Shown: one piece after another, positions 9,980 through 47,901 of the stretch
Layout of the letters: every line of letters starts with the position of its first letter
Numbering within the stretch: position 1 is the first letter of the stretch
NCBI GenBank assembly: GCA_964604555.1
Contig: CAZRZK010000001.1
Span: forward strand, 205,991-269,990
Direction: 5' to 3'
Source of the DNA: an uncultured Pseudobdellovibrionaceae bacterium
Lineage (GTDB): Bacteria > Bdellovibrionota > FAC87 > UBA2466
Length of the DNA stretch: 64,000 nt
Notes under the pieces: model-generated
Database searches by the model: none
What the model saw: only the letters and a program-made list of their open reading frames with translations
Told to the model about the DNA's origin: nothing
Made by a program: the position numbers and the translations under genes

Positions 9980-10942
9980 TTACCGAACGAGCACGTCCAT
10001 CGGATTCTTCTGCTTTAAAAGTGCTGATTCTAATATCTTATAGGATTCTTCCTCATTATCGAGGTCAATTTCACCTACGTAATGAGTTTGTATATCGGAA
10101 CTAATTTTAAACCAGTTAAGTGATTGCCCTTTTATCGAGAAAGTAGGCATTCTTCCTAGAAATGAACCCCAAGCGCTATACGACGAACCACCAGACCCTA
10201 ACAGGATGTTAGCACGAGTCAGGTTTATTAAATCAGTAATTGCGGCAGGAGATTTTAAGTGATGGGTATTTGGCAAGCTTAAAACTGGCAACAAGTCATT
10301 AGCGGTTCCATCACTGATAATAAAGGCATCCTCAACTTTTCCCAGTACGTCTCGAACCATTTTGAGGGTTTTGGCAAACCAAGTCAGCGGAGTTCGAACT
10401 CCTCCCTTCGTGATGAAGTCGGATTTAGTACGTGCATCTATGAAATCCTTTCCTCTTCGAATATTCAAAACGATGGGCAGTAATTTGGGGGATGTCTCAT
10501 CTAGTTTTAGGTATTTCTGCTTTGTGATTTCGCGAAGCCATTGAATGAGGTGTTTTTGATAAGGGACTAGATCCCCAAAGAATCTCTCGTTACCAGAAAA
10601 TATGATTTGTCCCCTGGGTAGAACCTGCTTTTCAAAAAAAGGTGAAAGTAACTCAGATTCATTCCAACGGGGTTTAAAATATTTTATCCACTCACTCTTA
10701 ATTCCCACCAAGTCTTCTTTGCCAGGTTCGAAATTATCGTAAACAAGTACTTTACGAAATGCGGTCGCATATTCAAATCCTCCTCTAAAAAAAGGCCGAA
10801 TGCGAAAGAAAAACCAGTTTGGGGCCACCATCGGGCAGTTGTTGACATGGGAAAAAATTTTGCAGCGAGCCCATGGGAAAAGCCGATTCCCTAACCCTGA
10901 ACTTCTAACCATTTCAGCTCTGCAAATCGTTAAGGGAATCAT
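9980..10942 (-). CDS. Glycosyltransferase family 11 (alpha-1,2-fucosyltransferase-like)
   Basis: GT11 motifs: N-terminal SGLGNRLFPWA (cf. GGLGNQMFQYA), NIRRGKDF (cf. HIRRGDY), C-terminal GSGGSSYSAWGSFLG (cf. STFSWWAAWL). Confidence 0.6.
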   Translation of the reverse strand: MIPLTICRAEMVRSSGLGNRLFPWARCKIFSHVNNCPMVAPNWFFFRIRPFFRGGFEYATAFRKVLVYDNFEPGKEDLVGIKSEWIKYFKPRWNESELLSPFFEKQVLPRGQIIFSGNERFFGDLVPYQKHLIQWLREITKQKYLKLDETSPKLLPIVLNIRRGKDFIDARTKSDFITKGGVRTPLTWFAKTLKMVRDVLGKVEDAFIISDGTANDLLPVLSLPNTHHLKSPAAITDLINLTRANILLGSGGSSYSAWGSFLGRMPTFSIKGQSLNWFKISSDIQTHYVGEIDLDNEEESYKILESALLKQKNPMDVLVR

Positions 10943-10955
10943 AATTACGACAGAA

Positions 10956-11441
10956 TTAGTCTAACATTTTTTTCATTTTAATACTTTCTAAACAGAGACC
11001 ATCTCTTTGTAAGGGAAGGTGGCTTATTTCTACAAAACCAATTTTAGTATATAAGCTCCTTGCTACTTTGTTAAAAGACAAAACCTCTAAATACAACGTT
11101 TCAAGCTCCAGTAGAGAACAGAGAAAGGGGATAAATTGTATAAAAGCCGCTTTACTTAATCCCTTACCCCTATGTTCTTTGGCCAGGTCTAACCCAATGT
11201 AAATAGAGTGATCTGCTGGGGAGTAATTCGATAGGCGAAAATATCCAACAGGTTTATTTTCCAATTGGATGATATAAAAATTAGGATTGGTTGTTTTAAA
11301 CCAATGAATACATTGCTTTAAGGTAAACTTTCGGGAATCGTGTAAAAAATGACGACACTCATTTCGTACTGAAAGTAAAAATGGAAGCTCAGCCTCCGAA
11401 AGTAAGTGGAACTCAAGACTGGGAAAACGAGTTTTACCCAA
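10956..11441 (-). CDS. GNAT-family N-acetyltransferase (start uncertain; ORF-track start 11519 would overlap ndk by 86 nt)
   Basis: GNAT core ...[36 protein letters not shown]...SLYTKIGF; candidate TTG start at 11441 overlapping ndk stop. Confidence 0.65.
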
Positions 11442-11832
11442 AGAAATATTTGATTTCCCTATCTGCCGAGGTTGGGCTGTCGGAACCATGCACGCTATTG
11501 GCTTCCATGCTTTCGGCAAAAAGAGCGCGAATCGTCTGTGGGGCTGCTTTTGCGGGATCCGTTGCCCCCATTAATTTGCGGTATTTTTCCACTGCGCCTT
11601 GCCCTTCAAGCACCATTAGAAGAACGGGTCCGCTGGTCATGAAAGAGACGAGCGAATTGAAAAAGGGACGTGCCTTGTGTTCGGCGTAGAATCCTTCCGC
11701 CTCCGATTTTGAGAGGGATTTCATCTTGGCTTCGACGATGGAGAGACCTTCCTCTTCAATCATCGCCAGAATTTTTCCGATGTGTTTGGCCTTTACGGCA
11801 TTGGGTTTAATAATTGCAAATGTTTTTTCCAC
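11434..11832 (-). CDS. ndk: Nucleoside diphosphate kinase
   Basis: [13 protein letters not shown]...[19 protein letters not shown]; active-site His region NSVHGSDS. Confidence 0.9.
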
Positions 11833-11847
11833 AGACTACTCGCTTTC

Positions 11848-12720
11848 TTACTTCTTAAGAGCCTTTTCCATCGTATCACCGATAGTTGCAGGGCTCATTG
11901 AAACATGGACTCCTGCCTTCTCCAAGGCGGCAATCTTATCCGAAGCCTTGCCACTTCCGCCACTAATAATTGCACCGGCATGGCCCATCCGCTTTCCGGG
12001 GGGGGCGGTCTGGCCGCCGATGAAGCCAACGACCGGTTTTTTGACGTGGGCTTTAATGTATTCGGCGCCAATCTCTTCAGCATTCCCGCCGATTTCACCG
12101 ATCATGACGATCGCATCGGTGTCGGGGTCTTCATTAAAGAGTTTCAGGGTCTCTAAGAAGGAAAGGCCATGAATCGGGTCGCCGCCAATGCCGACACAGG
12201 TCGATTGGCCGATGCCCCGGACGGTCAGTTGGTGGACCGCTTCATAGGTGAGGGTTCCACTGCGGGAGACAAGTCCCACTTTTCCGGCTTTATGGATGTA
12301 TCCCGGCATGATCCCGATTTTGCATTCCCCTGGAGTGATGATTCCAGGGCAGTTGGGTCCGATGAGGACACATTCTTTCGATTTGAGGTAGCTCTTCACC
12401 GGCACCATATCCATCACAGGGATGCCTTCGGTGATGCAGACAATCACTTTAATCCCGGCATCGGCCGCTTCCAAGACGGCATCGGCCGCAAAGGGCGCGG
12501 GGACGTAGATCATGGTGGCATTGGCTTGAGTTTTTTGAACGGCATCGGCGACCGAATTAAAAATGGGAATCCCATCGATTTCGGTGCCCCCTTTTCCGGG
12601 GGTGACGCCACCGACCACCTTCGTGCCATATTCTTTGCACTGTTTGGTGTGGAAGGCACCCGCTTGGCCGGTAATTCCTTGGACAATCAGCTTGGTGTTT
12701 TTATTGACGAGAATGCTCAC
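11848..12720 (-). CDS. sucD: Succinyl-CoA synthetase alpha subunit
   Basis: [21 protein letters not shown]... CoA-binding and phosphohistidine region GxxGHAGA ([12 protein letters not shown]). Confidence 0.92.
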
Positions 12721-23330: not shown

Positions 23331-24959
23331 TTGCAGAGGGAGCGGGTGGGTATGCCTATTCTAGGTTTATTCACGATATTAGTGCTGCTTTCATTCTGGA
23401 TCGCCCCCTGGGGAAACTTCCCCTTAAATGATGATTGGCAATACAGTCTGATTGCCCATCTCCTAGCGGTCGATGGGAAAGTGCGCTTGATCCTGCCGGT
23501 CGCTCCGTCGTTAGTGCTGCAATCCTATCTTGGGAGTTGGGTGATTCAGGGGTTTGGTTTCAATCACCTCTATTTGCGATTGCTCACCTTATTGATCTCG
23601 GCCATTTGGCTTGTCGCCATCGATTGGATTCTACGGGAGTTGCAAGTCGCTCCCCTTTTCAGATTTTTGGCAGGACTGTTGGTCATTCTTAACCCACTCT
23701 TTGTCCATGTTGCTTTAAGTTTTATGACGGAACCGTATGGTTTTGCTTTTGCGACCTTAGGGGTGGCCTTTTGGTTTTATGGACGTCGTTCTTCCCATTC
23801 CTGGATCTTCTACAATATAGGGGCGATTTTATTGGGCTTGTCCTTTTGGGTTCGGCAATTGTGCGCGCTCTATTTTCCAGCGCTGATTTTTGCGGAGGCG
23901 GTTTTGGCTTGGCAAGAAAAGCAGTTTTGGAAAAGAGCGGTCCAGTGGGTCCTTCCGAGTCTCTTGTTTACTCTCCTTGTGGTTGGGTTTGCGGTTTGGG
24001 TCCGTCAGACCAAGAATTTAACGGTCGCCTTTGAAGGGAATCTGGTGGCCCTGTTGATTCCCAATGTTGGGAATTTTATTTTACAGGGTTTTGTATTCCT
24101 GGTTTATGGAGCCTTCTTTTTCTCTCCTTGGCTGGTGCAATGGAAAGTTCCCTTCCAAGAAAAAAAATACCGATGGGTGTTGGGTCTGCTTTTCGCCATT
24201 GCGATTGGGGTCTATATCGGCTCCACAAAAAGGTATCCGATGAAGGCCAATCTCCATGCGGTCTTTCCTTTTTTGGGAAATGTGATGAACCCTTCCGGAT
24301 TGGGGCCGATTACCCTGACCGATCGATATACTAATGATTATCCTACCCAGCTTCCCCATTTTACGCCCATATGGATATTGATTGAATGTCTTCTGATAAT
24401 CGTTGCCCTCAATTGGAAAAGGGTTCTGCCCGCAAAAAAACACTTTGATTTTGTTTCTCTTTTTGCTCTGGGTGCCATCGGCATTCAGTTCCTGATTATC
24501 ACTCAAGCCTTTCAGCAGGGGATTATCGATCGTTATTTGATGGGGTTTATATTACCCGCGCTTTTGCTCCTGGCCCGAATATCCCATTCCCTTCATTTTT
24601 CCTGGAAAAAGGCTGCCTTTCCGGTAATTTTTTTGGCGCTCTATTCCTGGGGTGGAGAATATGACTATTTCCGGTGGAATGAAGTCCGCTGGCAGCTGGT
24701 TTCACTGGCACAATCCCAATCGATTCCCATGGATCAGCTGGATGGGGGATTTGAGGTGAATGGCTCCCTCCATTTTCAAGACATCCACGCCGATCCCTAT
24801 TCTGATCCCCTTTGCGGCCCGCAGAAAAGTTGGTTCTGCGGAGATCTGAAATATGGCATTGGCTGGGAACCCCTTTCCAGTCGGGTAATTCTAGAATCCC
24901 GCAAGGTGAACTCTCTCTGGGTCAACTACCCCGAGATTTTTCTCTATTCACAAAGGTAA
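23331..24959 (+). CDS. Polytopic inner-membrane protein, GT-C-like (ArnT/PMT-like) glycosyltransferase fold candidate
   Basis: 542 aa, at least 11 predicted TM helices, extracytoplasmic loop motif near N-terminus (NDDWQY); weak resemblance only. Confidence 0.4.
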   Translation: MQRERVGMPILGLFTILVLLSFWIAPWGNFPLNDDWQYSLIAHLLAVDGKVRLILPVAPSLVLQSYLGSWVIQGFGFNHLYLRLLTLLISAIWLVAIDWILRELQVAPLFRFLAGLLVILNPLFVHVALSFMTEPYGFAFATLGVAFWFYGRRSSHSWIFYNIGAILLGLSFWVRQLCALYFPALIFAEAVLAWQEKQFWKRAVQWVLPSLLFTLLVVGFAVWVRQTKNLTVAFEGNLVALLIPNVGNFILQGFVFLVYGAFFFSPWLVQWKVPFQEKKYRWVLGLLFAIAIGVYIGSTKRYPMKANLHAVFPFLGNVMNPSGLGPITLTDRYTNDYPTQLPHFTPIWILIECLLIIVALNWKRVLPAKKHFDFVSLFALGAIGIQFLIITQAFQQGIIDRYLMGFILPALLLLARISHSLHFSWKKAAFPVIFLALYSWGGEYDYFRWNEVRWQLVSLAQSQSIPMDQLDGGFEVNGSLHFQDIHADPYSDPLCGPQKSWFCGDLKYGIGWEPLSSRVILESRKVNSLWVNYPEIFLYSQR

Positions 24960-26636
24960 ATTGCCCCTCTTTGCGATCGCTTCAAGAAGTCCGGGCAGAG
25001 TGAATGTTTTGCGAGGGGTGGAGAGCTGTTTCTTGAGCTCGGTGATCACCTTCTCGTCAGTATTGATCTTTCTTGCCCAGGACAAAAAATCGATGTAGCC
25101 AGGCAGTTCGCCGAATTCATTTTTGAATGATTGGGTGAGTTGTTGCGGAGTAAAGTAACTGCGATCATGGTGGCACATCAGGCACATGTCGGCATGGGCG
25201 TGAGTGGTGATTCCTTTACCGGGCTGTTTTTCTTCGATCGTAAAATAGATCCCTGGAAAGAGGGTCTTTACTTTTCCTGTATCCATATGAATTTCATAGG
25301 AGAGGCCGATAAAACCACGTCCCATATGATCCAACTCTTTTACTTCCACTCGCACTCGCATGGCATCTTGCTGCGAGATTGGCTGGAATCGAATCATTCC
25401 ATTTTTTAAAGAGGCAAGATCCAACTCGAAGAAAAAGATAATGGAGATCAATCGAGATTGGACTTTTGAAAGCCAAACCACCCGCAATCCGGCGGCATCA
25501 TCTTGACTCGTCTCATATTTTCCTTGATGCCGTTCCTTGGGATCGGTAAAGGTCTGGTAACTGACGACGGCTAGGGGATCTTTGAGAGCATAGAAAAGGG
25601 CCGGGAGGATTTCCTTTTCCAATCCCTCTTGGAATTTTTGGAAAGATTGCACCGCTTGGGGCCATTCCCGTTCCCTGAATTTTTTAAACTCATTCCAGGA
25701 ATCGGCCTCACGTTCTTTATATTGCTTCCAGGAGATCTCTTTTCCGGGAGTGTATTGGAATGAAGAGGTAGGCAAAGTGGGGTCCTGCTTTTTCCAGGCT
25801 ATTTCACCTCCGAAGGTCAGATCCAGGGGAATGGCCATTTCTTCGTCCGATTCTTTGAATTGCACCCAGACTCGATAGTTCCCCTCCTTACTTACCTCAA
25901 GTGGGGCCTGAAGGAGCTGGATTCCCTTCTCTTTCCAGAGTTTTTCGGCCTCTTCGCGCGTCTTTTTTGAAAGGGTGTGGGCATGTCCACCGGGATGGAG
26001 GATATCCATCGCATGGGCATGTTCAAAAATTCGGCCATCTTGAGAGATCAAAATAATGTGGGCCGGTTCTCCGAGAAGGGGCTGGAGTTGAAATGCTTTT
26101 TTATCTAGGCGTTGTAATTCGATGGTAGTGGGGTTGGCCCAACCTGCTATGAGTGAGGCATCGATTCTAATTTTAGCCTCTCTTTGAAGGACGCTTCCTC
26201 TTTTCGACTCCTGAAAGGGTTTTATTTTTACCCCCGGTTTTCCCTCTTCAACAGTGATGAGTGCATTCGCCGCAAAAGTAGTTTGGGTCTCTTTGAGAGT
26301 GCCTTGAACCCAAAGATAATAGTTTCCTTTCGATTCGAGGGTGATGGGCAGAGTCCAATTTCCCTTTTCATCGCATGTAGGATGGAGATGTTGAAAAATC
26401 TCTAACGAAGTGTCGAATAAAAAAGCGTGGAGTTTGTACTGGTGAACTTTTTCAAGTTTTTCCAGGGGGACGATCTCTTCGTCTATTTTGTTTATCAGTT
26501 TAAAGGAGAGTTGCGCGGGGGCCGATTTGATCTTCCGTCCTTTTGGGAAGAAAAACTCAACCGGGGATTCCCCCTCCACGTGGGCAAAGAGAACGATTGG
26601 AAAGAGAATGAGATTAAGGATCCACAGCTTCAGCAC
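24948..26636 (-). CDS. Secreted protein with two tandem His-rich modules and a C-terminal CxxCH motif (last gene of six-gene operon)
   Basis: Signal peptide; repeated HxH...HP...GNY(Y/R)(L/V)WVQ pattern twice; HAHADMCLMCHHDRSYF contains CLMCH heme-c-type motif. Confidence 0.5.
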   Translation of the reverse strand: MLKLWILNLILFPIVLFAHVEGESPVEFFFPKGRKIKSAPAQLSFKLINKIDEEIVPLEKLEKVHQYKLHAFLFDTSLEIFQHLHPTCDEKGNWTLPITLESKGNYYLWVQGTLKETQTTFAANALITVEEGKPGVKIKPFQESKRGSVLQREAKIRIDASLIAGWANPTTIELQRLDKKAFQLQPLLGEPAHIILISQDGRIFEHAHAMDILHPGGHAHTLSKKTREEAEKLWKEKGIQLLQAPLEVSKEGNYRVWVQFKESDEEMAIPLDLTFGGEIAWKKQDPTLPTSSFQYTPGKEISWKQYKEREADSWNEFKKFREREWPQAVQSFQKFQEGLEKEILPALFYALKDPLAVVSYQTFTDPKERHQGKYETSQDDAAGLRVVWLSKVQSRLISIIFFFELDLASLKNGMIRFQPISQQDAMRVRVEVKELDHMGRGFIGLSYEIHMDTGKVKTLFPGIYFTIEEKQPGKGITTHAHADMCLMCHHDRSYFTPQQLTQSFKNEFGELPGYIDFLSWARKINTDEKVITELKKQLSTPRKTFTLPGLLEAIAKRGNLPL

Positions 26637-36607: not shown

Positions 36608-38479
36608 TTATCTCCGGACCTTTGGCTCCAGCCACCAGTGGATCATCTTGTCCAAGTTTTCAATTTCACTATGTGGAATATCTTCGTTCAGCGCTTTGAG
36701 GACCATCGTCTCGAATTCCTCCCGTTCCTTTGGATTCCGCATCCAATAGTTACTGAATTCGGTCTGGATCGTCTTTCGGTATTCAATGAAATGGAGATCC
36801 ACTTCGGGGGTAAAAGCGGTCGTTTCCACGATGAATCGGGCCATTGTTTCCGCAGCGATCACTTTTGCAAAGGGATCCGAATTAGAAAGCTCCATATAGG
36901 AACGCAGTTGGATGAGAGCGGGTCTCAGACTGGTGCGGACTTGGTTGGAGTTCCATTCCCCCGTCTCGGCATTGGCAGAAATAACCTGTCTCAGTCGGTT
37001 GAAAGTGGCTTCAAAGTGCTCTTCAAAGACATTCCTTCTATTTCCATTATTATAGGCATTTTTTGAAGTTCCACTTTTAACAAAGGCATCTACCGGCATT
37101 GCGTAGCCGACCAAGAAGGGGGCGGTAAGAAAAGAGATGATAGAGACGGCAATCGTTGCCCCGGCACCTATTGCACTATCAGTTGTGCTTAGAACCACGA
37201 CTCCATTAGTGGCAGAGACGGTGAAAGCTGAAAGTCCAAAGTAAGAGACCGCCTTTCGGGTTGGGATAATGGATCGGAGCTGTTCGGCAATCGGCTTAGT
37301 GATACGAACCAGGACTTCATGCAATTCCTTCTGATTGCAGTGGGTTCCGCATTCTTTCAGCGATTTATCGGCGATTTCTAAAGAATGTTTTGAGATCGCA
37401 CCACGAAAATACCGGCGAACGAACCATCGATCTTCTTGCTTAGCGAGATCTTCGAGCATCTTGGTGATGGAAATGACTGTTTGAAAGGATTCGGTCAGGT
37501 GGGCACTGAACTTCTCAGAGGCGCAGCCCTCTCCACAACGTTTTTTTGCCCTCTCGACTGCGACATCGGTCAACTTGTCGATTGAATTACGCAACCATCT
37601 TTTTAAGAAATATCCTTCCTCTTTTGAAACCAACTGCTGGATCTGCTTTTTTGCTTCTAAGATGACAGCTAAATGGTTGAGAAGTTCTTTAGAAAGCTCC
37701 TCGGGACCACAAGAAGCTCCACATTTTTGCAAAGAACGTTGGAGGGCTATCTTTGCCCCTCTTTCTAATGGCCTCCAAGTCCACCATCTCCACCAGCTGA
37801 TATGAATCGAGTTTTTTTCGAGTTCCTTTTTAATAGAATTGCCGAGGTCCCGAAGCGTTTTGAAGGATTCGGCCAAATAGGAACCAAGTTGCTCTGGCGG
37901 GCAGGTGGGGCCACACTTCTCAAGGGCCCGGTCTAAAGCAGTGTCAGCGACACTTTCTAAGGTATTACGGAACCATTGAGAGGAGAGGGAACGGCTGCCA
38001 CGGGCCTCTTGAACCACCTTTTCCAACTCTGTTTTCACCGCAATTGCCTGAAGAACAGCCGCGCGGAGGTGATTTTGGAACTCTGCTGCCGAACAGTTAG
38101 GGCCACAATACCTTATTGCCCTCTGTATCAGCTGATCGGTAATGGAATCGAGAGAATTACGGAGCCAACGTCGGTAATCCAGATCCTCCGTAGCGGTACG
38201 GATTTCACGATCCAGCAACGCAAGGGTTTTGAAGGAGTCCTTGAGCTGATCTTCAAATTCCTTAGGGGTAGGGTCCTCTCCACAGATTTTACGGGTGGCC
38301 TCGATGACCTCATTAGCTCGTTGATAAAGGCGATTTCTTTCGGATCGGCTTTCGGCAATTTCATAAATGGTGCGATCGGCCAGCATTTTGGCGGTTCTGG
38401 CGCAGACATATTCGATTGCATGGAGAGAGTTCTGGAGTAGGAGGGAAAAACCAAGGACTAAAAATAATTTTTTGCTCAC
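36608..38479 (-). CDS. Secreted repeat protein: six ~55 aa helical repeats each with CGxxC (one degenerate) followed by TM segment and about 170 aa C-terminal domain; unknown function
   Basis: Signal peptide MSKKLFLVLGFSLLLQNSLHA; repeats ...RWLRNS(L/I)DxxTDxxxxRAxxxCG(PN/PT/AS/EG/TH)Cxx(E/K)(F/L)xxxLxxSFxTL...; hydrophobic stretch VVVLSTTDSAIGAGATIAVSIISFLTAPFLVGYA. Confidence 0.55.
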   Translation of the reverse strand: MSKKLFLVLGFSLLLQNSLHAIEYVCARTAKMLADRTIYEIAESRSERNRLYQRANEVIEATRKICGEDPTPKEFEDQLKDSFKTLALLDREIRTATEDLDYRRWLRNSLDSITDQLIQRAIRYCGPNCSAAEFQNHLRAAVLQAIAVKTELEKVVQEARGSRSLSSQWFRNTLESVADTALDRALEKCGPTCPPEQLGSYLAESFKTLRDLGNSIKKELEKNSIHISWWRWWTWRPLERGAKIALQRSLQKCGASCGPEELSKELLNHLAVILEAKKQIQQLVSKEEGYFLKRWLRNSIDKLTDVAVERAKKRCGEGCASEKFSAHLTESFQTVISITKMLEDLAKQEDRWFVRRYFRGAISKHSLEIADKSLKECGTHCNQKELHEVLVRITKPIAEQLRSIIPTRKAVSYFGLSAFTVSATNGVVVLSTTDSAIGAGATIAVSIISFLTAPFLVGYAMPVDAFVKSGTSKNAYNNGNRRNVFEEHFEATFNRLRQVISANAETGEWNSNQVRTSLRPALIQLRSYMELSNSDPFAKVIAAETMARFIVETTAFTPEVDLHFIEYRKTIQTEFSNYWMRNPKEREEFETMVLKALNEDIPHSEIENLDKMIHWWLEPKVRR

Positions 38480-43789: not shown

Positions 43790-44491
43790 TTATTTCCTTT
43801 TAATACAAAGAACGCCTGAAAGAACTTCCGGCTCCTGCTTTATTTCTTTATCCGAAAGGAGGTCAAAGACAGCCTTGTCTTCACGCAACCAAACTTGAAA
43901 ATGACGAGGGGTGAGCCCCCCGGCTTCTTTAAAAGACAACTTTAATTTTTCCAACGAAGGACGAATATCCTCTTTCTGAGGGATCACCCACTTCACATCG
44001 TTACAGGCAGCCTCACCTGCTTTTTGCGATTTAAGTTCGGGAAGTAATAGCCAACTGACGACGCCATCTCGAGTTATTGTCGGATTTTTCTTTTCAGTTC
44101 TTTTCAAAGGGAGGCTGTTTTTTTTCATCAAGCTTAAATAGGGGGCCATGATCTCTTCTTGCACCTCTAATTCCATATCAAAGAAGGTTCCCCACTTGGT
44201 TTTTTCCAATTGGATGGCCGCCTCATTCTTTTCGGCCTTTGAAGAAACCGACGTTTGGGTGATGAGTTTCTCTAATGCAACCACCTCATCCAAGGTCCAA
44301 GTACTTTTCTTCTGTTCTACCTCTCTGCAGATCTGAGAAAGGGTTTCATAGGCCTTCCCGAGATATCGATTGGCAATCCAATCTCCACCCGATTCATTTC
44401 CGGCCATCAAAGTTGAATGGACTAAGCAGAGGCTAAATATCAACTGGGAATAACTGCATCGAAAGTGCATAAACTCTCCTCTTTTTTCCAC
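43790..44491 (-). CDS. Hypothetical protein (possible signal peptide); start uncertain because of overlap with upstream gene
   Basis: 233 aa ORF; N-terminus hydrophobic LIFSLCLVHSTLMAG. Confidence 0.4.
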   Translation of the reverse strand: MEKRGEFMHFRCSYSQLIFSLCLVHSTLMAGNESGGDWIANRYLGKAYETLSQICREVEQKKSTWTLDEVVALEKLITQTSVSSKAEKNEAAIQLEKTKWGTFFDMELEVQEEIMAPYLSLMKKNSLPLKRTEKKNPTITRDGVVSWLLLPELKSQKAGEAACNDVKWVIPQKEDIRPSLEKLKLSFKEAGGLTPRHFQVWLREDKAVFDLLSDKEIKQEPEVLSGVLCIKRK

Positions 44492-45197
44492 GTTCCAACT
44501 GTTCGCAAACGGTTCGGCGAAATGATTTCATGCTTTGGCGGGCATCCTCCAGTTTTGTCGGGTCGGCCGCCATCACCACGGTGTAATATGCCAAATCTTC
44601 CGGCAGGTTCTTATCCAAAGCCTCTTCTGCCTTTTTCAAATATTCCTGGGTATGGTTTCGGATCGCCGGATCGGCCAAGGTATCTTGAGTGGCCAGGGGC
44701 GGTGCGATCTGCCGATATTTTCCGTCATTTTCTTCGATCAATTTCAGACGCTTCATGCGTTCTAATGCTTCTTCCGCTTCCCGTTTTAAAATGCCTAGCT
44801 TTTTTGCAATCCATTCCGGATCGGAGTTGGAGTTCGGCAGCTCTGAGAGGCTCAGCATAGCGTAGTGATACCACTGCGAGATCAGTTGGAAGGTGTCGAG
44901 TTCCAACACCTGATAAATATCTTCCGCCGTTGCCGCCTTCTTTGCATTGACCGCTTTTAAAAGTTCAGCGCGATCTTTAGGGGAGAGATTCAGCCTCAAG
45001 GCGATCTGTTTGGCCATTTTTCGGGTCAGACGTCGTTTTCCAGAGAGCACTCCTGATAAGGTCGCTGGACTTATCCCTAATTTTCCGGCAAAGGCCCGCA
45101 TCGAAAGGGCAGGGTTTTTCTTTTGACGACTTTGGAACTCCCCCTGAAGCCATCGCCGATGGTTTCGAAAGGATTGTTCCGTGATGAGAGTTTCCAT
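44433..45197 (-). CDS. HTH-containing putative transcriptional regulator of unknown family
   Basis: N-terminal HTH-like LSMRAFAGKLGISPATLSGVLSGKRRLT; 254 aa; divergent from gene 45385. Confidence 0.5.
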   Translation of the reverse strand: METLITEQSFRNHRRWLQGEFQSRQKKNPALSMRAFAGKLGISPATLSGVLSGKRRLTRKMAKQIALRLNLSPKDRAELLKAVNAKKAATAEDIYQVLELDTFQLISQWYHYAMLSLSELPNSNSDPEWIAKKLGILKREAEEALERMKRLKLIEENDGKYRQIAPPLATQDTLADPAIRNHTQEYLKKAEEALDKNLPEDLAYYTVVMAADPTKLEDARQSMKSFRRTVCEQLERGKKRRVYALSMQLFPVDI

Positions 45198-45384
45198 TTC
45201 CTAGCTTTTAAACAAAAATTACGCGCATGTCCAAGTAAATGAAATAAACCGTTTCAAAAAAAATGAAACAACTTTCACTATTAATTTTGAGTAGTTAACT
45301 AAATTACTCTAGCCAACAACCAGGTAAATGAAATTTGACTCAAGGCGATAATACTGCGATACACCGCTCAACATTGGAGAACGC

Positions 45385-47901
45385 ATGTTTCAGATTCTTT
45401 TTTTGATGGCTTTGTCTCTCGGAGCAGAGGAAAACCAACTCAATCAAAAGGTGACCACGCTTTTTAATAGTAAATGCCAAAAGTGCCATAACGCGGAATT
45501 GGCTGAAGGGGATCTCGATCTGACTCAGCTGAAAATGACCGCTGCCCAGAAATTGGAACTCCCCAAGCGCATCGCCCCCGGTGGCGGAATGCCTAAAGGT
45601 GGCGCTCCACTCTCCAAGGAGGAGATTGCACTGGTGGCTGAATGGTTACGGACCACCGATGTGAAACCACCGGTCGTGAAAAGAAAACTAGAACTGAAAG
45701 ATGATATTGATCCTGAGGATCATAAACAGGTATTGGAGCTCCAGATTTTAAGAGTGATCCTGAATGACTTGACCCGTCTCTCTGAAGCGGAAGCGTTGAA
45801 TGCCCGCTATCTCACACTGACCCATTTATGGGTAGCAGGAGAGTCTGAACAGAAAATGGAAGTGTATCGACAAGGCTTAACTAAACTTTTAAACAGCCTT
45901 TCGTGGAAGTCGGGGTTGCATCACCCCGTAGCAATAGATAAGCACAAAACGATTTTGCGCTTTAGCCAGGCTGCTTTGGGCTGGAAGGATTTGCACTGGA
46001 ATCTATTAGCAGCTACCGATCCTTATTTTCGTAAATTGAATGAACCAATCTACAACCTGCTCAGCAAATTTAATCCGGAGGTTCCCGTTCCCTATGTTCG
46101 CGGTGATTCATTTGCCCAAAGGGTAAGCCGTTCTCCTTTTTATGAAGATATTTTGGAGCTTCCCAAAACGGCGAAACAATTGGCCGGTTTTTTTGAGAGT
46201 CCTTTCGAAAAAAATATCCAAGAAGGAAAAGTGGCCCGAGCCGGGTTTCGGAAATCGAATGTTTCAGGTTTCAACCGTCTTATCGAACGCCATGAATTAG
46301 ATACAAAGTTATATAGAACTGTTGGGGGAGGGTATTACTGGAGAAGTTACGATTTCGACGGCAATTCCGGGGATAAGGATCTCTTTAAAAACCCTTTTAC
46401 CGCAGTCGATAAATCCACCAAGAAATTTAATCATGGCGGTGGGGAAGTGATTTTCAGTCTACCCAATGGTATGCAAGCCTATTGGTTGGAAAAGGCCGAT
46501 GGCACTCGTCTTGATATTGCCCCTACCGAAATTGTTTCTGATACCAGTCGTCGTGATACCCGCATCTTCAATGGGATTAGCTGCATGGGCTGCCATGTCG
46601 GAGGACTTCACATTAAATTCGATTCGATCCGTGAACATGCAGAACGGACCCCTGCCGCCTTTAAAGCGGACGATCTCGCACTCATAAAAAAGACCTATAA
46701 GGACCAGACTGAAATGGCCGCCATTTTTAAGAAGGATATCGAACGGTATCAAGCGGCGCTCGGAAAGATCGGGGTCAAAGAGGAGGGGAAACTCGATCCC
46801 ATTCGAACTCTGGTCGATCGATTTGAAGCTCCGGTCGATTTAGAAAATGCCGCGGCAGAACTTGGGATATCGATCGAGCAATTGAAGGCCGAGGCGAAAC
46901 GCAATGTGGAGGTCAGTGAAGCGTTGAGTGAACTTGAGAATGGCGGTTTGCCTCGGGATACATTTATCAAATTCTTTGTTAGCTTCATCCTTTCCGGTGA
47001 TGGAAAAGATAAATTCGGCGCCTTAAAGATCCACAAGCATCCAGAATTTGATCCCCATTTTGAATTTGTAGAAATTCCAGCTGGAAAGTTTCTGATGGGA
47101 AGTCCTAAGACGGAAAAGGGGAGAGATTCTGATCCTGTGGAAAAGCAAAGAGAGGTCACCATTTCCGAGCCATTTGAAATGCAAACGACGCACGTTACTC
47201 AGTCGTTATATGAAAAGGTAAATGGCAGGAATCCTTCTCTTCGCGTAGCAAGAATTAAGCCAGTTGAAAACGTGTCATGGCTTCAAGCCAATCAATTCGC
47301 CCTCGATCTTACTCTACTTCGAAACGACGGCTACACCTATCGCCTACCGACCGATGCAGAATGGGAATATGCTGCGCGTGCCGGAACTCAAACCGCCTAT
47401 TATTTTGGAGACGATCCGGGCAAAGATAATGAGATATTAAAACAGCATGCTTGGTTTGATAAGAAGGAAACGACTTCTGTGGCTTCTCTTAAACCGAATC
47501 CTTGGGGACTCTACGATATGTATGGAAATGCGTTTCAATGGGTAGAAGATATGTTTTCAGAAGATTATCTCAATAATCGAATTCTTCGAGGGGGAGGATT
47601 CCATCATTCACTTTCCGACAGATTACGTTCGGCATCAAAAACTCACTTTAATCGGGATTATGGAGACACTACTACCGGTTTTAGATTAGTGCGAGTAAAG
47701 AAAAAGAAAGCCGAGACTCCTGCCACAAAACCGGCAGTCGTCACCCCGAAGCTCATCGATCCGATGCCATATATTCCACCCCAGCCTTCGCAACCAGTGC
47801 GCACCTCAAACCCTGTAACGCCACTTCCGGCTAACGCAACCATTCAAGAGCGAATCAAATGGTGGGAACAGAACTACCCGCACCTCGTTCCTAAGAAGTA
47901 A
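45385..47901 (+). CDS. Secreted multidomain protein: PSCyt1-like c-type cytochrome domain (CQKCH) + central domain with second CxxCH (CMGCH) + C-terminal formylglycine-generating-enzyme (FGE-sulfatase/SUMF1-like) domain + Pro-rich tail
   Basis: Signal peptide; N-term ...CQKCHNAELAEGDLDL...GGGMPKGG...LVAEWL; C-term ...FVEIPAGKFLMGSP...NVSWLQANQFALDL...YRLPTDAEWEYAARAG...NPWGLYDMYGNAFQWVED...ILRGGGF...GFRLVR. Confidence 0.7.
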   Translation: MFQILFLMALSLGAEENQLNQKVTTLFNSKCQKCHNAELAEGDLDLTQLKMTAAQKLELPKRIAPGGGMPKGGAPLSKEEIALVAEWLRTTDVKPPVVKRKLELKDDIDPEDHKQVLELQILRVILNDLTRLSEAEALNARYLTLTHLWVAGESEQKMEVYRQGLTKLLNSLSWKSGLHHPVAIDKHKTILRFSQAALGWKDLHWNLLAATDPYFRKLNEPIYNLLSKFNPEVPVPYVRGDSFAQRVSRSPFYEDILELPKTAKQLAGFFESPFEKNIQEGKVARAGFRKSNVSGFNRLIERHELDTKLYRTVGGGYYWRSYDFDGNSGDKDLFKNPFTAVDKSTKKFNHGGGEVIFSLPNGMQAYWLEKADGTRLDIAPTEIVSDTSRRDTRIFNGISCMGCHVGGLHIKFDSIREHAERTPAAFKADDLALIKKTYKDQTEMAAIFKKDIERYQAALGKIGVKEEGKLDPIRTLVDRFEAPVDLENAAAELGISIEQLKAEAKRNVEVSEALSELENGGLPRDTFIKFFVSFILSGDGKDKFGALKIHKHPEFDPHFEFVEIPAGKFLMGSPKTEKGRDSDPVEKQREVTISEPFEMQTTHVTQSLYEKVNGRNPSLRVARIKPVENVSWLQANQFALDLTLLRNDGYTYRLPTDAEWEYAARAGTQTAYYFGDDPGKDNEILKQHAWFDKKETTSVASLKPNPWGLYDMYGNAFQWVEDMFSEDYLNNRILRGGGFHHSLSDRLRSASKTHFNRDYGDTTTGFRLVRVKKKKAETPATKPAVVTPKLIDPMPYIPPQPSQPVRTSNPVTPLPANATIQERIKWWEQNYPHLVPKK

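Follow-up and report, generated by a model that had tools for sequence, protein, structure and literature searches.

The stretch of DNA examined, 64,000 nucleotides of a contig from an uncultured Pseudobdellovibrionaceae bacterium (hereafter the window; guanine plus cytosine content 47%), carries a gene for a protein of 838 amino acids (aa), which is transcribed divergently from a gene for a helix-turn-helix (HTH) regulator, and beyond this regulator lies a gene for a small, probably secreted protein of 232 aa. The 838-aa protein is composed of a cytochrome c domain, a central region with a second c-type haem motif, and a C-terminal domain with the fold of formylglycine-generating enzyme (FGE). 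This division into three parts was already made in the original prediction, and is in agreement with the Pfam matches and with the conservation of the CxxCH motifs. It is well supported that the protein is an exported dihaem protein, in which a relay cytochrome c is joined to a new conserved haem domain and to an FGE-fold domain without cysteine; its export, the attachment of the haems and the axial ligands are predicted from the sequence. No paralogue of the dihaem gene, of the regulator gene or of the gene for the small secreted protein was found in the window. The alanyl-tRNA synthetase (AlaRS) encoded in the window had no match above 62% identity in the protein collection searched, its best named matches being from metagenome-assembled genomes of Deltaproteobacteria and Bdellovibrionales, which places the window in an uncultured, deeply branching, Bdellovibrionota-like lineage.

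The protein contains four cysteines in total (positions 31, 34, 400 and 403), every one of which is located inside a CxxCH haem motif. The domain around the first motif matched Cytochrome_CBB3 (PF13442) of Pfam at aa 22-88 with 29.2 bits, above its gathering score of 27. The PSCyt1 module assigned to this region in the original prediction stood as a cytochrome c domain, but the PSCyt1 profile itself gave 12.8 bits, below its gathering score of 22; the cut-off was reached in the two closest relatives (22.0 bits in P0002 and 25.4 bits in P0003), and PSCyt1 was matched in 30 of the 55 family members sampled. The second motif, CMGCH, is present as predicted but occupies aa 400-404 instead of the neighborhood of residue 410. 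The expected conservation of both motifs in orthologs was observed: two CxxCH motifs were found 340-480 aa apart, mostly about 360-375, in 114 of the 120 best homologues, and both were retained in 228 of 248 representatives. By alignment of 76 sequences, 31 invariant positions were identified, seven of which are haem-linked residues or the proline at position 70 (C31, C34, H35, P70, C400, C403 and H404), while M69 is conserved in at least 90% of the sequences. The conserved M69 followed by the invariant P70 is consistent with a distal Met ligand in a class I cytochrome c domain, and M69 is likely to be the sixth ligand of haem 1.

The other 24 invariant positions of this alignment are all located in the central region (Y142, W205, R239, D241, Y253, S291, S294, R298, E301, D323, F324, P337, F348, G352, G353, E354, F357, Y366, V384, G397, S399, G407, E492 and R524), and in addition H303 was invariant in an alignment of the subdomain. 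S291, S294, R298, E301, H303, D323, F324 and those from F348 to Y366 fall within the segment of aa ~284-410, which forms a five-stranded beta-sheet with the helix of the second haem motif. The central domain shares 55-71% identity with that of the nearest relatives (71% in P0002, 60% in P0003 and 55% in P0004) and about 40% across phyla, and the motifs of the family, RYLTLTHL, SGVSxNNRLIERH, YWxSYDF, GGExIF[SN]LPNG and NGISCMxCH, are present together with the two CxxCH motifs at the spacing of ~360-375 aa. Searches of Pfam and NCBIfam gave no match to the central domain, 22 excised subdomain sequences gave none in Pfam at E<=10, comparison of the module and the subdomain with the PDB, by sequence and by profile, gave matches only to the cytochrome c and FGE-domain parts, and Foldseek against the PDB returned nothing below E=2. 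The central haem domain is an undescribed family without counterpart in Pfam, NCBIfam or the PDB. The AlphaFold2 model built on the 76-sequence alignment was confident (predicted local distance difference test, pLDDT, 89.6; predicted template modelling score, pTM, 0.87), and the central beta-sheet may bear a weak structural likeness to cytochromes P460 and c'-beta (8brk, 7s5o, 6hiu and 2je3), to which no Pfam or PDB profile match was obtained. A P460/c'-like pocket, with invariant Arg, Glu, His, Asp, Tyr and Phe along its walls, may hold haem 2. The 838-aa protein also carries an eight-residue insertion, KLYRTVGG (aa ~306-314; window positions ~46300-46326), in the loop that follows the invariant LIERH strand, which is not present in any of the 21 other aligned sequences.

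The similarity to homologues is limited to the first ~545 aa, beyond which the C-termini vary. With aa 110-545 as the query, at least 3,095 clusters (50% identity) were identified at E<=1e-3 and 1,170 at E<=1e-30, and at least 594 loci were located when each species was represented by a single genome, the hosts being Planctomycetota, Poribacteria, Hyphomicrobiales (Labrys, Bradyrhizobium, Methylocella and Lichenifustis), Kuenenia, and one metagenome-assembled genome each of Alcaligenaceae and Bacteriovoracaceae. The module is also found in Bdellovibrionota-like bacteria, and cultured carriers include Labrys, Bradyrhizobium, Lichenifustis and Zavarzinella. The C-terminal partners are FGE-like, DUF4384, WD40, TPR, Sel1 and HEAT domains, PQQ- or PD40-like propellers and a prenyltransferase-like toroid; members of the DUF4384 type form a large, mostly alphaproteobacterial clade, and some members carry PAP2 or FHA at the N-terminus. 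An FGE-like tail was detected in 17 of the 120 best matches, in 5 of 55 members sampled evenly and, by motif, in at least 31 of the 248 representatives, and the FGE-tailed members are scattered over several clades of the tree built from the module by neighbour joining. Some members have been deposited under the name "formylglycine-generating enzyme family protein" and others as "DUF4384 domain-containing protein". The fusion, which had been regarded as unusual, is real but recurrent, and it is well supported that it represents one of the architectures of a large modular family. Against P0004, the identity is 55% for the central domain, 48% for the whole N-terminal module and 35% for the FGE fold, and both P0002 and P0003 carry a different, propeller-like C-terminus. 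The conserved unit is the cytochrome c domain plus the central haem domain, and the C-terminal domain is exchangeable. Such a conserved core with a variable binding domain is the pattern of an effector with a specificity domain.

Hanks-type Ser/Thr kinases linked through a transmembrane (TM) segment to the module were found in six of the 248 representatives, at least three of which also terminate in an FGE-like domain. In P0190, the kinase (Pkinase, 117-374) is followed by the TM segment, the cytochrome c domain (468), the central domain (558-968) and the FGE domain (1011-1217); since fusions of this type occur, the layout of the 838-aa protein also exists as the ectodomain of a kinase. P0123 and P0133 are likewise kinase-TM-module proteins, P0129 is an FHA-TM-module protein, and a 7TM-module form also exists.

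The FGE-sulfatase domain (PF03781) predicted at the C-terminus was detected by profile search at aa 560-770 with E=1.4e-35 and 123.6 bits against the cut-off of 23.3. In FGE, catalysis depends on Cu(I) held by two cysteines of the active site (10.1101/2021.05.21.445229). The whole region of aa 405-838 is free of cysteine, and this Cu-binding pair is absent. The RGGGF motif is followed by HHSLSDRLRS, and the C336-x4-C341 pair of human FGE (SUMF1) would presumably correspond in position to RGGGF-HHSLSD, the absence of cysteine being independent of this alignment. The CxxxxC pair is likewise missing from the FGE-bearing relatives. It is well supported that the 838-aa protein is not a formylglycine-generating enzyme, and the Cu-dependent oxidase of FGE type proposed in the original prediction is excluded because no cysteine is present outside the two CxxCH motifs. 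The closest structures are all extracytoplasmic non-FGE members of the fold, PvdO (5hha), TvpA of Treponema denticola (2y3c) and PorK/GldK (E from 1e-17 to 1e-11 by PDB sequence search); none of them is known to act as a formylglycine-generating enzyme, PvdO is known to lack the catalytic cysteines of FGE, and none is fused to a cytochrome, unlike the 838-aa protein. The scores were far from the curated equivalog cut-offs of PvdO (NF051459, 80.6 against 500 bits), PorK-GldK (TIGR03525, 64.3 against 350) and EgtB (TIGR03440, 26.6 against 360), no DinB_2 domain was detected by Pfam in the protein, and a six-frame regular-expression scan of the window revealed no sulfatase signature C/S-x-P-x-R, a weak criterion as FGE genes may be unlinked to their substrates. 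The FGE fold without cysteine is probably a non-catalytic, lectin-like domain for binding or targeting; it is read in this way, and not as the catalytic partner of the haems as had been proposed, because the C-terminal domain is exchangeable within the family among FGE-like, DUF4384, WD40, TPR and propeller types. After this domain the protein continues into a 68-aa tail rich in Lys and Pro, which was not mentioned in the original prediction and was not seen among those relatives whose full sequences were inspected. The tail could be a linker with an anchoring or sorting helix.

Table 1. Features of the dihaem gene and its neighborhood; positions are those of the window
Feature	Position	Strand	Basis
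CDS, 838-aa dihaem/FGE-fold protein, identical to P0001	45385..47901	+	Open reading frame and translation
Shine-Dalgarno-like GGAG, 5 nt 5' of ATG	45376..45379	+	Read from sequence
Probable Sec signal peptide (MFQILFLMALSLGA/EE)	45385..45426	+	Hydrophobic N-terminus; export need of c-type cytochromes
Class I cytochrome c domain, aa 22-88	45448..45648	+	Pfam match and alignment
First haem motif, C31-Q-K-C-H35	45475-45489	+	Within cytochrome c domain
Likely axial Met69-Pro70	45589-45594	+	Alignment conservation
Conserved central alpha/beta haem domain, undescribed family, aa ~112-545	45718..47019	+	Alignment and AlphaFold2 model
Five-stranded beta-sheet and haem-motif helix, aa ~284-410	46234..46614	+	AlphaFold2 model, alignment
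Second haem motif, C400-M-G-C-H404	46582..46596	+	Sequence and alignment
FGE-sulfatase-fold domain, aa 560-770, no cysteine	47062..47694	+	Pfam, profile and PDB sequence matches
Lys/Pro/Thr-rich tail ending in IQERIKWWEQNYPHLVPKK, aa 771-838 (68 aa), pI ~10	47695..47898	+	Sequence
Terminator-like hairpin and T-run, 41 nt past stop codon	47942..47966	+	Consensus match only
Divergent HTH_3 + DUF4423 regulator, TIGR02147 family	44433..45197	-	Pfam and NCBIfam; 61% identical to regulator at same position on contig L081
Small secreted protein (probable), 232 aa	43790..44491	-	Downstream of regulator; co-conserved on L081 (28% identity, E=1e-34)
Repeat box 1, CCAAGTAAATGAAAT	45231..45245		Repeat search of 187-bp spacer
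Repeat box 2, CCAGGTAAATGAAAT	45320..45334		Repeat search of 187-bp spacer
Weaker third copy, …AAAATGAAACAA	45254..45271		Repeat search

The start of the 838-aa reading frame is the first start codon past an in-frame stop, and no start is possible further upstream. The N-terminus probably represents a short Sec signal peptide, and equivalent N-termini are present in the relatives; Sec export is predicted because this N-terminus is hydrophobic and because c-type cytochromes must be exported. The gene on the 3' side is convergent, and the dihaem gene appears to be monocistronic.

The divergent HTH regulator noted in the original prediction was verified by its HTH_3 and DUF4423 domains and by its membership of the TIGR02147 family, as were the two direct repeats in the shared promoter region, GTAAATGAAAT being found exactly at 45235 and 45324 with no other exact copy in the window. 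These repeats extend to CCArGTAAATGAAAT, and the 187-bp spacer between the two genes (45198-45384) contains CCAAGTAAATGAAAT and CCAGGTAAATGAAAT, separated by 89 bp, plus a weaker AAAATGAAAC copy. An exact 11-mer repeat arose in about 1% of dinucleotide shuffles of this spacer. The set of three genes, with the secreted protein gene following the regulator gene and the dihaem-FGE gene diverging from it, is conserved on the metagenomic contig L081, which carries the homologue P0004, and nothing else is common to the 16-kb L081 locus and the window. The spacer on L081 contains TGAAAC/GTTTCA palindromes, which lends weak support to a half-site common to both spacers. It is plausible that the TIGR02147/DUF4423 regulator controls the dihaem gene through the CCArGTAAATGAAAT boxes. 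On L081, a second DUF4423 regulator gene lies in an apparent operon with the gene for a He_PIG-domain protein (10076-12183), which suggests that this lineage may repeatedly pair TIGR02147 paralogues with secreted-protein genes. The 232-aa protein gave no match in Pfam or NCBIfam, and the homologue search returned only itself; its counterpart on L081, the sole relative detected, was found by synteny only, with three aligned cysteines. Its segment AACNDV..KWVIPQKEDI gives the impression, and only that, of the C…W/Y-RLPT-x-x-E motif of C-type-lectin/FGE-like folds.

In other lineages the neighbors of the module genes differ, and among the 80 loci compared no neighbor gene was conserved throughout the family. 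The only recurrent neighbors were lineage-specific: in Hyphomicrobiales they encode caspases, and in Poribacteria FGE/TPR proteins. At the P0190 locus (JGI 3300047160), the kinase-TM-dihaem-FGE gene lies 40 bp 3' of a gene for a 472-aa globin-domain protein, which is preceded by a gene for an extracytoplasmic function (ECF) sigma factor; a dual-specificity phosphatase gene at this locus is convergent. At the P0015 locus, a gene for a small PSCyt1 cytochrome is located upstream and ECF sigma genes are nearby. Members of the DUF4384 type in Hyphomicrobiales are accompanied by one or two genes for caspase-domain proteins (Peptidase_C14), often following on the same strand, as in Lichenifustis (L064, 5482-11854), where a caspase-PAN gene is followed by a caspase-LprI gene and the start overlaps the preceding stop by 4 bp, and in Labrys (L033, 5149-9967), where a TPR-caspase gene lies beside the DUF4384-type member. 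Eight further loci adjacent to caspase genes were identified by motif scan, among them L003, L010, L017, L020, L028, L050 and L072. Genomes of Poribacteria (for example L030, L035, L066 and L079) carry several paralogues of the module, contig CBDBFT010000001.1 being the source of both L014 and L031, and the neighbors there include genes for double FGE-sulfatase, FRG-TPR-TaqI_C and ECF-sigma-LRR-GHL15 proteins.

For the stand-alone soluble form, the reading tentatively favored over a pure sensor is that of a periplasmic targeted redox enzyme, made of the dihaem module and a lectin-like domain, an estimate in which the anatomy described above is included. The small His/Met class I cytochrome c domain would act as an electron relay, and the alpha/beta domain of ~430 aa would carry the second c-type haem (C400xxCH) on a beta-sheet core most like cytochromes P460 and c'-beta, of which the haem pockets bind or convert small molecules. 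The dihaem module would be the conserved working end, at which a bound substrate or a small ligand active in redox chemistry (peroxide, NO, O2 or a hydroxylamine-type compound) reacts, and it would exchange electrons through the relay haem. The FGE-fold, C-type-lectin-like domain, having lost the Cu-binding cysteines, would target the module through the binding of a ligand or a partner, as one of the many interchangeable binding domains of the family. An enzyme is favored because the module is extremely well conserved and contains its own relay haem, and because most members are without an output domain; relay cytochromes of the dedicated His/Met kind are typical of oxidoreductases. Extracytoplasmic electron transfer of undescribed function, as suggested in the original prediction, still describes the N-terminal 545 aa fairly, but the part of that prediction concerning an FGE-type oxidase did not hold. 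The P460-like pocket, and catalysis as against sensing, are what we infer from the alignment and the model, and several points weigh against the enzyme as described. The model of the module contains no haem, and the pocket, the coordination and the haem-haem distance are not placed by it; an FGE fold may be enzymatic, or putatively so, even when the Cys pair is missing, as with PvdO and EgtB, and need not serve for binding only; no gene for a redox partner or a substrate is conserved beside the dihaem gene; the link to the regulator is drawn from one related contig and a short repeat, and the regulator is absent from the related P0006 locus; and the fusions to kinase and FHA favor a sensor role for the module.

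Under this last alternative, which is possible but less probable, the dihaem module would be an extracytoplasmic haem-based sensor, in which binding of a gas or an oxidant, or a change of the periplasmic redox state, at haem 2 alters the conformation and the signal passes to a partner. In some lineages this partner would be present in cis, as a Ser/Thr kinase or an FHA domain on the cytoplasmic side of a single TM helix, and in the case of the 838-aa protein it would be present in trans, with docking by the FGE-like domain. In addition to the kinase-TM-module(-FGE) and FHA-TM-module architectures themselves, the ECF sigma and globin-domain genes directly upstream of P0190 and the ECF sigma genes near P0015 agree with sensing, and FGE-sulfatase and DUF4384 are known as ectodomains of one bacterial Ser/Thr kinase family, Proteo1 (10.1101/2025.01.12.632604). 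Kinases are, however, confined to the six representatives mentioned, most members, the 838-aa protein included, being without an output domain or a TM helix, and a soluble periplasmic protein cannot alone signal to a cytoplasmic HTH regulator. The module is also far better conserved than usual sensor domains, with many invariant Arg, Asp, Glu, Ser and Tyr, and its relay cytochrome fits an oxidoreductase. An unlikely variant of the enzyme is that the FGE-fold domain is itself a catalytic oxidase (FGE-, PvdO- or EgtB-like), with the two haems feeding or draining its electrons. The strength of the FGE match, the covalent linkage to two haems, and PvdO as the best family match, a putative periplasmic oxidoreductase itself without the FGE cysteines, would fit such an enzyme, but the Cu site of FGE is impossible in a domain free of cysteine, the PvdO and EgtB scores are far below their cut-offs without any DinB_2 domain, and no sulfatase signature lies nearby. 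The dihaem module is elsewhere fused to non-enzymes (WD40, TPR, DUF4384 and propellers), and the FGE domain, at 35% identity to P0004, is less conserved than the N-terminal module and the central domain (48-55%).

A structural or scaffolding protein of the periplasm, such as a PorK/GldK-like ring component or an adhesin merely stabilised by its haems, is very improbable: the FGE-like domain has PorK/GldK among its best matches and the WD40, TPR, Sel1 and HEAT partners in the family are scaffolds, but the GldK score was 64 bits against 350, no genes of the type IX secretion system are adjacent, and two strictly conserved haem motifs with a polar invariant pocket point to chemistry. The FGE-sulfatase domain is a frequent target of diversity-generating retroelements (PMC5758913), and TvpA of Treponema ranks second among the PDB sequence matches to the C-terminal domain. 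A variable protein of such an element, or another hypervariable ligand-binding protein with its FGE/C-type-lectin domain mutagenised as in TvpA, is nevertheless hardly credible, and the reading as a target of such an element is ruled out for the window, where blastn of 47001-47901 against the rest gave matches of at most 22 nt, without a template repeat, and no long open reading frame carries the YxDD motif of reverse transcriptase.

Among known systems, the dihaem cytochrome c peroxidases and MauG (e.g., YhjA, 9qdt) are some of the closest, and the combination by which that family is recognized, a match to PF03150 together with two cytochrome c-fold domains, was not found in the 838-aa protein. 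The fatty-acid cis/trans isomerase CTI (PF06934) is a periplasmic enzyme with a similar N-terminal cytochrome c domain. Weak matches to CTI recurred (E of 0.15, 0.0022 and 0.0035) at profile positions ~14-124 of 692, the cytochrome part, and the 838-aa protein gave 11 bits against 25 at positions 61-119 of 692; identity with CTI was rejected, as the match is limited to the cytochrome part and the central domain is unmatched. Hanks-type Ser/Thr kinases and orthocaspases share the partner-domain repertoire of the dihaem family (FGE-sulfatase, DUF4384, WD40 and TPR), and FGE-sulfatase and DUF4384 are listed in orthocaspase reviews (PMC7475262, PMC6426788). Their conserved unit is, however, the kinase or the protease, whereas that of the dihaem family is the N-terminal periplasmic dihaem module, and the 838-aa protein has neither kinase nor protease.

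For the family as a whole, it is conceivable, though far from assured, that the cytochrome c and central domains form a new class of extracytoplasmic haem-based sensor/effector, in which a reactive haem of the P460 kind and a built-in relay cytochrome are plugged through FGE-like, DUF4384, WD40 and TPR domains into networks of Ser/Thr kinases, FHA proteins, ECF sigma factors and periplasmic caspases. If so, redox or small-molecule chemistry in the periplasm would be linked by the module to signalling, or to responses of the defence and cell-death type. The family comprises at least about 3,000 sequence clusters with a confidently modelled, strongly conserved haem domain that is so far uncurated, and its members are now misnamed after an accessory domain, with sulfatase maturation wrongly suggested by the annotation. 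Once the chemistry of the second haem is defined, thousands of proteins would gain a function, the wiring of the module to kinases, FHA domains and caspase neighbors would be explained, and the misleading annotation would be corrected.

Two other genes of the window code for proteins with regularly placed cysteines or a haem motif. The gene at 36608-38479 (minus strand) encodes a secreted or membrane protein of 623 aa with about five helical repeats of ~55-60 aa, each with a CGxxC motif (YCGPNC, KCGPTC, KCGASC, RCGEGC and ECGTHC), for which only a faint match to the NACHT N-terminal helical domain (NNH1) was obtained. The gene at 24948-26636 (minus strand) encodes a probable secreted protein of 562 aa, unrelated to the dihaem protein, with a single C-terminal CxxCH motif (CLMCHH).

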